From: Bradymonadales bacterium
GTDB taxonomy: Bacteria; Bdellovibrionota; UBA2394
Reading direction: 5' to 3'
DNA: 41,018 bases
NCBI GenBank assembly: GCA_007693605.1
Contig: REDG01000027.1
Coordinates: 1-41,018, forward strand
Part shown: positions 38,800-40,992 of the stretch, piece after piece
Layout of the letters: every line of letters starts with the position of its first letter
How positions within the stretch are numbered: position 1 is the first letter of the stretch
The notes under the pieces: model-generated
The model's input: the letters and a program-made list of their open reading frames with translations, nothing else
What the model was told of the DNA's origin: nothing
Databases searched by the model: none
Program-made: the position numbers and the translations under genes

Positions 38800-39146
38800 A
38801 GTTCTCCATACCCCCAAAAAAAGATTCTACATATCCTCTCGGATATCCATTGTTGTCACATTTCGAACATTGGATGCGTTTTTCGCACCTACATATTCTT
38901 ACTCTCACAGCGGTGCGTTTGCCGAAAGGCAAAACCCCCAGGAGTTTGGAAGCTAACACAATTTCAGACGAAAGTAAAGCTCACTCGAACCCCTTGATTT
39001 CACTTGATAAAACCAGCATACTCTAGGCTCCCTCAGCATTCAAGCCCCTAAGCCCAAGTCTCTGACCGGAATCTTCGACGCATTGCAGACTTCGCTTGAT
39101 TGGGCGGTTCTGGCTTCGTTACAGTGTCATCAAGGGGACAGGGGAT

Positions 39147-40109
39147 ATGATTTCAACTTTCTGGTCTAAACTGGCTTTTAGCGGCTCATTGCTGAGTTCA
39201 GTTTTTGTGCTCACCGCAGGGACGAGTTTTGCTCATATCGAGTCCGATATCGAGGACCTCAGTTTCGAAACGCTAGAGAACTATGCGACCTACAAGAGCT
39301 TTCGAGACGCCCTGTCAGCGGCCGAACGAGAGGCCTTCCGAAACAATGATCCCTTTGATCCAACCAATCGAACGCCTCACTCTCAAAACCCCATTCGAAG
39401 ACCTGGCTTTAATGACATTGGCTCGAGAGTTCCCATCCCACGACAGGGTGCCGCCTTTATCGTCGCGCTTGAAGTTTTGTATCAGACTCTCAACTACTAC
39501 GGGGTCGAACATATCGTTGAGAGAAGAGGCAATACGATTGACTTTCAAGTCGTTCATTCGAGCAAGGGCCATTTCAACTCCCTCGATCGGCTCCAAGTGA
39601 CTTACGCCCTTCAAGAGTTCTCTCGATTCTTCACCGCCTATATGTGCAACGCGCCGACCATTGAAAATTTCTATCATGCCTTTTCGCAGATTCCGATTGA
39701 GGAGATCGGATTGAGATTTAAGTTTGATATGGCCTGGGCTTTGTTGGGCAATCTTCTGCCTACAGAACCGCGGGCAATCTTCGCGGTCGGAAGTCGGTGG
39801 GCTGCGCTTGGACAACTTTTAGGGGGCTCTTCAACCATCACCGGACAGGTAGAGGATCAGAGAGAGCTAAGCCGTTGGCTGGGCATGCTCACGGATATCA
39901 CGAATCTAGTGGAGGGCTTGAGCCGAATGGTCTGTTATGTCGACATTCGACCTGATCCGGTTGAAGAGATTCAGAAGAGAATTGTGATCAATCGGCTCTT
40001 GGACCTGGAACTTTCAATGTTTCAAAACTACGAGTCCCTTCAAGAGCTTGTAGATGCGGCGATTGCGGAAGGCCGAGCCGCTCAGGTGCAACGCCTTCAG
40101 GACCGCTAA
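39147..40109 (+). CDS. Hypothetical secreted protein
   Basis: 320-codon ORF, signal-peptide-like N-terminus ending SFA, G-rich SD, upstream TTGATT-18-TACAGT. Confidence 0.7.
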   Translation: MISTFWSKLAFSGSLLSSVFVLTAGTSFAHIESDIEDLSFETLENYATYKSFRDALSAAEREAFRNNDPFDPTNRTPHSQNPIRRPGFNDIGSRVPIPRQGAAFIVALEVLYQTLNYYGVEHIVERRGNTIDFQVVHSSKGHFNSLDRLQVTYALQEFSRFFTAYMCNAPTIENFYHAFSQIPIEEIGLRFKFDMAWALLGNLLPTEPRAIFAVGSRWAALGQLLGGSSTITGQVEDQRELSRWLGMLTDITNLVEGLSRMVCYVDIRPDPVEEIQKRIVINRLLDLELSMFQNYESLQELVDAAIAEGRAAQVQRLQDR

Positions 40110-40269
40110 AATCCAAGGAACTGATCAAAGGGCTTGCTCTCAGAAGCCCAAGCTTGATACGAAAACTAAAGAAAAGGGGTCAGAGGATGAAAGTGCCTGG
40201 CTGCCTGTAGTCTTAGTGTTGAGCGGAAACGAAGGAGTATGAAAGAGGACTGTCGCCAGCCTCTTGATT

Positions 40270-40392
40270 GGGAGTGGCGATAAGGGTCCAGATGCGCGAA
40301 GGCAAGGAGCGAGCATCGCAGTGTGGTTCAATGCCACTCGAGAAGCGCAGCGACGCAGCCGCCAAAGCGGGTAGGCCTTTAGTGACACTCCC
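40270..40392. repeat. ~124-bp dispersed palindromic element, copy 2
   Basis: Reverse complement of 23524-23647. Confidence 0.85.
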
Positions 40393-40410
40393 GAGTAGAG
40401 TTTTACGAAA

Positions 40411-40725
40411 GTGCCCATAGCTCAGCTGTCAGGGCTTTAGCCCTGCCAAGTATGGAGAGAGCATCGCTCTATCCAGCTGAGCGGACATGAAGGAGTTGAA
40501 GTAGAGTTTTTACGAGTGCCCATAGCTCAGCTGTCAGGGCTTTAGCCCTGCCAAGTATGGAGAGAGCATCGCTCTATCCAGCTGAGCGGACATGAAGGAG
40601 TTGAAGTAGAGTTTTTACGAGTGCCCATAGCTCAGCTGTCAGGGCTTTAGCCCTGCCAAGTATGGAGAGAGCATCGCTCTATCCAGCTGAGCGGACATGA
40701 AGGAGTTGAAGTAGAGTTTTTACGA
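40411..40725 (+). repeat. 3 x 105-bp identical tandem repeat derived from the tRNA-Arg 5' half
   Basis: Units start 40411, 40516, 40621; each begins GTGCCCATAGCTCAGCTG, identical to tRNA nt 1-18. Confidence 0.92.
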
Positions 40726-40799
40726 GTGCCCATAGCTCAGCTGGATAGAGCATCAGATTTCTAATCTGAGGGTCCCAGGTTCGAATCCTGGTGGGCACG
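40726..40799 (+). tRNA. tRNA-Arg(TCT)
   Basis: Acceptor GTGCCCA/TGGGCAC, D arm, anticodon arm TCAGA-TTTCTAA-TCTGA, T arm CCAGG-TTCGAAT-CCTGG; CCA not encoded. Confidence 0.96.
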
Positions 40800-40992
40800 C
40801 ACTACTCCCCATTCCAAACCAAAAGCTAATCGTAATTGTTCCTATAGGCCAATTTACTCTCAGCTTCTGCGCTCTGCTCGAAGCTTCATTCGCTCGAAAG
40901 ACTCGCTCACCGTAAATTGGGGTTCGAATCCTGGTGGGCACGCATTACTCCTCACTCCACCCGAAAAGCTAATCGTAATTGTTCCTATAGGC
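40778..40992 (+). repeat. Diverged direct repeat (143-bp offset) of the tRNA 3' end plus trailer
   Basis: GGTTCGAATCCTGGTGGGCACGCA...AAAAGCTAATCGTAATTGTTCCTATAGGC at 40778 and 40921. Confidence 0.85.

Follow-up and report, generated by a model that had tools for sequence, protein, structure and literature searches.

Immediately upstream of the tRNA-Arg(TCT) gene in the window (the whole 41,018-nt stretch of DNA analysed here) are three identical tandem units, each of which combines a copy of the 5' end of the tRNA, a short hairpin and an antisense copy of the D-arm. Units of the same design precede tRNA genes of many types in this genome (G000) and its relatives, and a mirror form, with the same core hairpin on the opposite strand, lies behind other tRNA genes. 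This is a real, recurrent and apparently undescribed 5' form of tRNA-linked repeats. The opposite-strand core of the mirror units points to an element that is mobile at the DNA level, as do the patchy distribution of units, syntenic sites that are empty and copy numbers that vary, and the units are likely to be selfish DNA rather than a regulator of one tRNA.

The outermost unit (unit 1, 105 bp; defined by the sequence, TRF and arm comparison) occupies positions 40411..40515 of the forward strand. Unit 2 (40516..40620) and unit 3 (40621..40725), both delimited by TRF and identity comparison, lie on the same strand, and unit 3 adjoins an intact tRNA-Arg(TCT) gene (40726..40800, forward strand), which is the sole high-scoring copy in the assembly. 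TRF on the window returned a period of 105, with 3.3 copies and 98 % matches over 40394-40743, and the three 124-nt stretches found at 105-nt spacing are 100 % identical to one another; the three identical 105-bp units of the original prediction are thus borne out. In unit 3, a copy of tRNA nt 1-18 (40621..40638; equivalents at 40411-28 and 40516-33) ends in G18 and runs into the core hairpin (40638..40656), which comprises G, a bulged T, a 6-bp stem, a 4-nt loop and a closing C. Downstream, and again on the forward strand, are a purine-rich linker in place of tRNA nt 19-21 (40657..40667), a sense copy of nt 22-29 (40668..40675), an antisense D-arm that is the exact reverse complement of nt 10-26 (40676..40692) and a 33-nt spacer (40693..40725) with the word TAGAGT at 40712-17. 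The 17-nt arms of the three units (40466-82, 40571-87 and 40676-92) are 100 % complementary to tRNA nt 10-26 (40735-51). The position names G18, C56 and D-loop were assigned by sequence from standard tRNA numbering. The anatomy first proposed was correct in its architecture, including the exact antisense arm, but left out the linker that follows the hairpin, as well as 11 nt of the spacer.

The units had also been said to carry the same leader as the real tRNA. An indel sets the leader of unit 1 apart from the others, and this leader shares sequence positions with the right arm of a dispersed hairpin repeat. This repeat (40244..40392, no strand assigned) abuts unit 1, is about 125-150 bp long and has 47 BLAST matches of at least 60 nt in this genome. 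The 33-nt spacer has similar counterparts in the Ile and Arg(TCG) units of this genome; of a four-row spacer comparison, the window-Ile pair was used. There is no ORF of at least 50 aa inside the array, and a search of the window against Rfam returned the tRNA plus two chance-level matches and nothing else. As originally suggested, a single unit is predicted to form a three-way junction at -37.1 kcal/mol, with z -2.16 and equally good values in 8 of 200 shuffles. The opposite strand of the unit gives a fold z of -3.69.

The array is genuine. In run X1, possibly the source sample, the collapsed unit contig has a depth of 50.9 against 14.3 in the flank (a ratio of about 3.6), so several unit copies are present in the DNA, and one X1 contig extends unbroken from 40338 into unit 1, up to 40439. 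The copy number is three as assembled and three or four from X1 depth, and no record extends across the whole array. This last point, and the fact that four of 14 matches in a metagenome scan are plain inverted tRNA duplications, are what could be said for an assembly artefact or a chimeric fold-back, the former having been offered with the original prediction as a real alternative. The depth ratio, the similar depth behaviour of the array at Leu(GAG) and the presence of the same design across many independent assemblies make this explanation extremely improbable. In a control for chance, an antisense D-arm match of at least 10 nt occurred in 2 of 1390 shuffled upstream regions.

Comparison across G000 reveals the unit design (nt 1-18, hairpin, nt 22-29, antisense D-arm and spacer) before approximately 10 of 31 tRNA genes, with the layout rebuilt in each unit from the sequence of its own adjacent tRNA gene. 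Leu(GAG) and Ala(TGC) have three units, Pro(TGG), Phe and Leu(CAG) two each, and Arg(ACG), Ile and Asn one; the Arg(TCG) units lie at the end of contig C49, and at Thr(GGT) only the antisense arm is present. In G000, tRNA loci were the only places where the complete architecture was detected. Family-wide, units occur at 20 tRNA types, with no codon or amino-acid pattern among them, and the specific link to the AGA-decoding tRNA that had been envisaged is therefore not supported. The antisense arm found its best match in its own tRNA in 15 of 31 units; in 13, another tRNA whose D-arm is similar scored equally well, and in three the arm's own tRNA ranked second.

A strict test, counting tRNA genes with at least 10 exact antisense bases within 250 nt, was positive for 7/31 tRNAs in G000, 16/40 in G011 and 9/29 in G001. 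Six other relatives gave 3/42, 2/34, 2/32, 1/36, 1/31 and 0/32, and other families 0/19. For G001, G002, G003 and G013 the best 30 tRNA loci by score were taken. The test admits a few false positives (e.g. L212) and misses worn units and a contig-end unit of G002; a doubtful ARAGORN call of Glu(CTC) was excluded from these and later counts, and mis-parsed rows (L212, L105, C58 and L169, not all four in every count) were removed before units were counted by parse. A search for the unit beside other tRNAs of related genomes had been proposed as a check on the original prediction; by the strict test up to 16 of 40 tRNAs (G011) are positive. The family-type core pattern is present in 6 of 14 family genomes and in 0 of 287 other searched genomes of the phylum.

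Spacer length varies from 18 to 66 nt across the family units. A fixed arm-to-tRNA spacing, suggested by the 43-49 nt of most matches in the collection scan, was rejected on account of this range. The spacers are G-rich and C-poor; on the element strand the scarcity of C is significant for 5' units (P = 5e-5) and not for eight 3' units (P = 0.22). A second type of 5' unit, with a different core, was seen at tRNA-Gly genes only, in five family genomes (L103, L133, L158, L160, L227 and L286).

The family core consists of G-T, a 6-bp stem, a short loop, C and an A-rich linker. The foot of the hairpin reads G-T...C in 25 of 36 parsed units and A-T...T in three; the parse did not specify this pair, which is a compensatory pair around a kept T. 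Stem pairs 2-4 show four pair types among 24 distinct cores, these cores having been selected for pairing. The last base of the loop is A in 29 of 32 5' parses; the window's own loop is TTTA, not GNA. Family loops such as GAA closed by C-G match the C-GNA-G loops described as DNA mini-hairpins, which are far less stable as RNA (PMC13037366), and this favours a DNA-level reading. Among 16 5' units, the junction directly follows G18 in 10 and is displaced by between -1 and +3 nt in the others. A core variant with facing GA dinucleotides, which may form tandem G-A pairs, was observed in family and Saccharibacteria units (L034, L040, L195, L249 and contig C59 of G000); it is in register in three family units and at 12 of 36 tRNAs of the wider scans, a highly redundant set. 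As a link between this family and the Saccharibacteria it was rejected, since the family count (4/307) equals background, and it is retained as a lead only.

Behind some tRNA genes of the family are 3' mirror units, composed of an antisense T-arm, a sense T-stem piece, the hairpin and a copy of nt 56 to the end, with the junction after the complement of C56 in both of the two scorable units. In these, it is on the opposite strand that the core nearest the junction, with its A-rich linker, is read. In a survey of 307 family tRNAs reaching 170 nt from each gene, the core was counted upstream on the tRNA strand 27 times and upstream on the opposite strand five times (two on each strand being one 3' unit seen from the next genes), and downstream 12 times on the opposite strand and 10 times on the tRNA strand (five of the 10 being second hairpins of 3' units that read as core both ways); chance expectation is about 1.6 per class. 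A comparison of the 3' cores on both strands is subject to register bias and is illustrative only. The core keeps to the strand that leads into the gene from its surroundings and is not tied to the transcribed one, for which a DNA-level signal would be the simplest explanation. Its change of strand behind tRNA genes argues for a DNA-level origin.

The relation of the antisense arm to the gene was examined at tRNA nt 19-21, which the unit replaces by its linker. Here 84 of 87 arm positions match the tRNA, as against 15 of 54 for the unit's own sense piece; identity had been part of the criteria by which arms were chosen. The arm keeps this match without a partner in the unit, which suggests, by an argument that is partly circular, that the real gene is its likely partner.

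Unit load per genome ranges from none of 32 to 16 of 40 tRNAs, and of 13 relatives one has units at the Arg(TCT) site. The upstream ORF has a homologue in G003 and G008 that stops approximately 60-70 nt short of the tRNA with nothing in the gap, and the same interval in G000 is 616 nt long and contains the dispersed repeat and the three units. That ORF (39096-40109) encodes about 320 aa, has 12 homologues including itself and belongs to no Pfam or NCBIfam family; its synteny with tRNA-Arg(TCT) is kept in 6 of the 13 relatives. Among 16 multi-hit rows, no outer copy is a better match to the tRNA than an inner one, and successive Arg(TCT) units of G011 differ in core, both of which fit serial insertion at the gene. 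An intact tRNA gene adjoins every parsed unit. The identical units of the window most likely reflect recent amplification, which fits either recent slippage or repeated insertion. A proposal that the element strand is the lagging-strand template was rejected, as the counts in G000 (four positive, three negative, two unclear) have no such bias.

From these observations, about an even chance is given to the following: the units are copies of a gene-less, non-autonomous and selfish element, about 100 bases long, which would move in single-stranded form as DNA and find its site by pairing of the antisense arm with a tRNA gene. A hairpin-binding nuclease or transposase would join the core at G|T in the D-loop, and the antisense arm, which spans the junction of the real gene, would act as the guide. 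The element would either supply a fresh nt 1-18 or re-copy it from the resident gene; with a fresh nt 1-18 after insertion at G18, the host tRNA gene would survive. Repeated insertion could enlarge an array, as could slippage involving its direct repeats of 18-34 nt, and loss could take the same routes. Re-matching of the arm to a new tRNA type may occur by gene conversion or by fold-back synthesis at insertion.

Several observations weaken this mobile-element reading. No enzyme is linked to the units, and five 3' units read as core on both strands. In the Escherichia coli repeats discussed below, a hairpin with a GCA/ACA loop is on the tRNA strand. The Gly-specific unit type recurs in five genomes in a way that looks like long inheritance. 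In G000 the full architecture is confined to tRNA loci and the counts show no lagging-strand bias, the window's own loop is not of the GNA type, and no empty allele or empty joint was seen in X1.

An alternative that dispenses with a dedicated enzyme is that the units are neutral replication scars, in which fold-back template switching generated a sense-antisense-sense triplication and a small REP-like hairpin spread by gene conversion, with slippage producing the arrays. The layout is indeed that of an inverted triplication; units vary in where they fold back, in the length of the arm and in the spacer (18-66 nt), slippage would account for identical tandem copies, and no enzyme was found. 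A template-switch scar plus slippage had been raised with the original prediction, but a pure scar leaves the conservation of the core unexplained, together with its fixed junction, its two orientations and its presence in phyla that are far apart. No extension of the antisense arm to nt 1-7 was detected (4.5 pairs against 4.1 in shuffles), and the different cores of the successive G011 units also speak against it. This alternative is considered unlikely.

A host-kept switch or decoy in the pre-tRNA leader can be modelled in two ways. In a read-through transcript, the antisense arm may pair with the unit's own copy, which would leave the tRNA free; alternatively, it may pair with the real D-arm while nt 1-7 of the unit take the acceptor stem, generating an enlarged tRNA-like molecule whose maturation would be delayed or diverted. 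Cofolding of unit and tRNA had been suggested as a check, and in the window precursor the predicted minimum is the fold with the arm on the real D-arm (-82.0 against -66.8 kcal/mol), a fold that is also the lower in 16 of 17 predicted precursors. The energy gap is built into the design, though, and the calculation ignores co-transcriptional folding. Substitutions in the 5' arms are C>T in 17 cases and G>A in four, which preserves pairing on the transcribed strand but is equally compatible with single-stranded DNA. Also in favour of this alternative are a TATAAT word just 5' of the unit in Saccharibacteria loci and three rRNA-linked TLRs of E. coli that are described as transcribed and as binding Hfq and CsrA (PMC8144298). 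Against this are the reverse-complemented core of the 3' units, the missing codon or amino-acid pattern and the existence of close relatives without units at the same gene. A regulatory role of this kind is improbable on balance. Should the modelled folds form, the host must avoid or use the alternative one, by folding order, quick cleavage or a transcription start inside the spacer. Two metatranscriptomes, in which the organism is not covered, had 0 and 1 reads matching the stretch in the window, and the Leu array drew 0 and 2.

The original prediction placed a possible -10 box in every unit, from which a promoter array could be imagined: a spacer promoter before each tRNA-like 5' end, with copy number tuning the output of tRNA or decoy. 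The word itself is present, TAGAGT lying 8 nt before each 5' copy, and TAnnnT words are mildly enriched (16/31 unit-bearing against 73/251 other tRNAs, P = 0.014), a count that G-rich, C-poor spacers may inflate. There is no sigma-70-type -35/-10 pair on the forward strand, good -10 matches precede 1 of 31 unit-bearing tRNAs as against 13 of 251 others, and in unit 1 the word overlaps the arm of the dispersed repeat. A promoter array is accordingly very unlikely.

The mobile-element reading calls for an enzyme, and candidates of four kinds (Y1/RAYT, Ssn, reverse transcriptase and IS110) were checked without any proving to be linked to the units. G000 encodes one RAYT at the NCBIfam cut-off. 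The flanks of 15 Y1 loci, this RAYT among them, yielded no family core; at most of these loci the flanks have short inverted repeats of another kind. G002, G003 and G012 have units and no Y1 match, and unit load does not correlate significantly with Y1 count (rho 0.43, P = 0.24). The SRM motif was found in 0 of 47 units, and none of the 22 GIY-YIG matches in the 14 family genomes is a single-domain gene of the small Ssn type. Reverse transcriptase and IS110 are missing from unit-rich genomes. No integrase gene was recognized within or beside the array, the upstream ORF matching no NCBIfam family. A RAYT-type gene (L070:1465-2121, on contig C78 of G000) is framed by a 25-bp inverted repeat, the core word of which occurs 22 times in G000, several times beside tRNA genes; this repeat shares 11 nt with the leader of unit 1. 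An IS110-family transposase lies on contig C64 (40595-40816), about 500 bp behind tRNA-His.

The closest known likeness is to the tRNA-linked repeats (TLRs) of E. coli, which have been known since 1978 without a known function (PMC8144298). The same text describes them as tandem non-coding units, one to five per tRNA or rRNA locus, with 18-19 nt of the 3' end of the gene, and reports that the rrA/B/F members are transcribed and processed to a small RNA (PMC8144298). The E. coli tyrT locus (the tyrT-tyrV 178-bp repeats; RtT, RF00391) was checked in the current study, and its layout is the mirror of the 5' units: antisense nt 77-68 and 65-56, sense 59-67, hairpin cargo and a copy of 67-85. Its hairpin has a 6-bp stem and a GCA/ACA loop, is on the tRNA strand and has no G-T...C foot. 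The 5' units resemble TLRs in being tandem, non-coding and beside tRNA genes in one to three copies. They differ in position and in what is copied: TLRs follow the gene and repeat its 3' end, whereas the 5' units lie before it and repeat nt 1-18. The 3' units of this family in turn have the hairpin on the opposite strand, unlike those of E. coli. A search for RtT (RF00391) was negative for the window and for 10 further loci related to the units, as against four matches in the E. coli control. The 5' units thus resemble a mirror of TLRs and are not members.

Three other systems share single features with the units. REP/RAYT and IS200/IS605 elements also have short, strand-specific DNA hairpins with a conserved foot and a short loop, cleavage sites set by guide pairing, and non-autonomous spread, the last two being a proposal in the case of the units (PMC8266576, PMC3733652). 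The units lack a GTAG or CGTC tag at the foot, having G-T...C or A-T...T instead, and their junction is G|T, in contrast with the CT site reported for RAYTs (PMC8266576, PMC3733652). In G000 they are bound to tRNA genes and absent as cores from the flanks of the local RAYT, whereas REPs are present in many dispersed extragenic copies, and their proposed guide is 12-20 nt long and matched to a tRNA. Integrative elements that target tRNA genes leave tRNA fragments (PMC9897764), just as the units comprise a partial copy of nt 1-18 next to an intact gene. The units differ from them in being about 100 bp, with no integrase or cargo genes, and in having a D-loop junction, restoration of the 5' end and an antisense arm (PMC9897764). 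Ssn nucleases with their NTS/SRM hairpins offer a precedent for strand-specific hairpin recognition in single-stranded DNA (PMC11893778), but the SRM motif and the small GIY-YIG gene are both lacking, in 47 units and 14 family genomes, respectively. On the features given in these sources, the units fail the defining ones of REP/RAYT, integrative elements and Ssn/SRM alike. No description of the 5' units was found in the full-text literature searched, which consists largely of open-access papers; the earlier statement that no named system has this 5' layout agrees with this and with the Rfam search.

Units are also present beyond the family. A scan of GTDB genomes specified an antisense D-arm, a gap and a D-arm only, leaving the 5' copy free. 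All 16 matches proved to be single tRNA genes with an upstream unit matched to the adjacent tRNA; the 5' copy is above threshold in 15, and in the 16th is present with a one-base gap. The matches comprise 11 Saccharibacteria (several near-identical), one Oscillospiraceae and four from three other MAGs, and are not independent. In Saccharibacteria, the Lys(CTT) locus has one unit in L065 and two in L066 and L068. The 14 matches in metagenomes include nine full units and one arm only; the remaining four (L056, L060, L064 and L067) are head-to-head inverted tRNA duplications, probably chimeric fold-backs. Viral contigs gave no match to the two-part pattern.

It is possible, though doubtful, that the 5' and 3' mirror units form one class of DNA-guided mini-transposon. 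Here a single-stranded circle of about 100 nt would carry a bulged-T hairpin that recruits an undescribed enzyme, and the 12-20-nt arm would direct insertion into the D-loop (top strand) or T-loop (bottom strand), with the gene rebuilt; the E. coli TLRs would be relics, and the arm might be reprogrammable for site-specific insertion. A 5' class that shares a polarized hairpin with opposite-strand 3' units suggests how tRNA-linked repeats arise. If an enzyme reads the core and the arm guides it, this would constitute a new, base-pair-programmed route of insertion. Should the alternative fold be the one adopted in cells, then in certain uncultured genomes as many as 40 % of tRNA genes would have a built-in antisense leader.

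Repeats at tRNA genes seem to break assemblies, as at the contig ends C49/C15 and C75/C13. In the whole G000 assembly ARAGORN detected no tmRNA, and no Lys or Asp tRNA at the default threshold; repeats at these genes may have broken the assembly there. Contig C13 apparently continues the end of the window. Downstream of tRNA-Arg(TCT) is a module of a different element (40841..40944, forward strand; period 143), which ends in a copy of the tRNA 3' end (40921-44). Modules with this period lie behind Arg, Ser, Gly, Cys and Trp genes; they have a core in common, repeat the tRNA from the T-arm to the end and lack an antisense arm on the tRNA strand. The sites in G000 are the one in the window, positions 1-74 of C13, and contigs C18, C46, C53 and C61.
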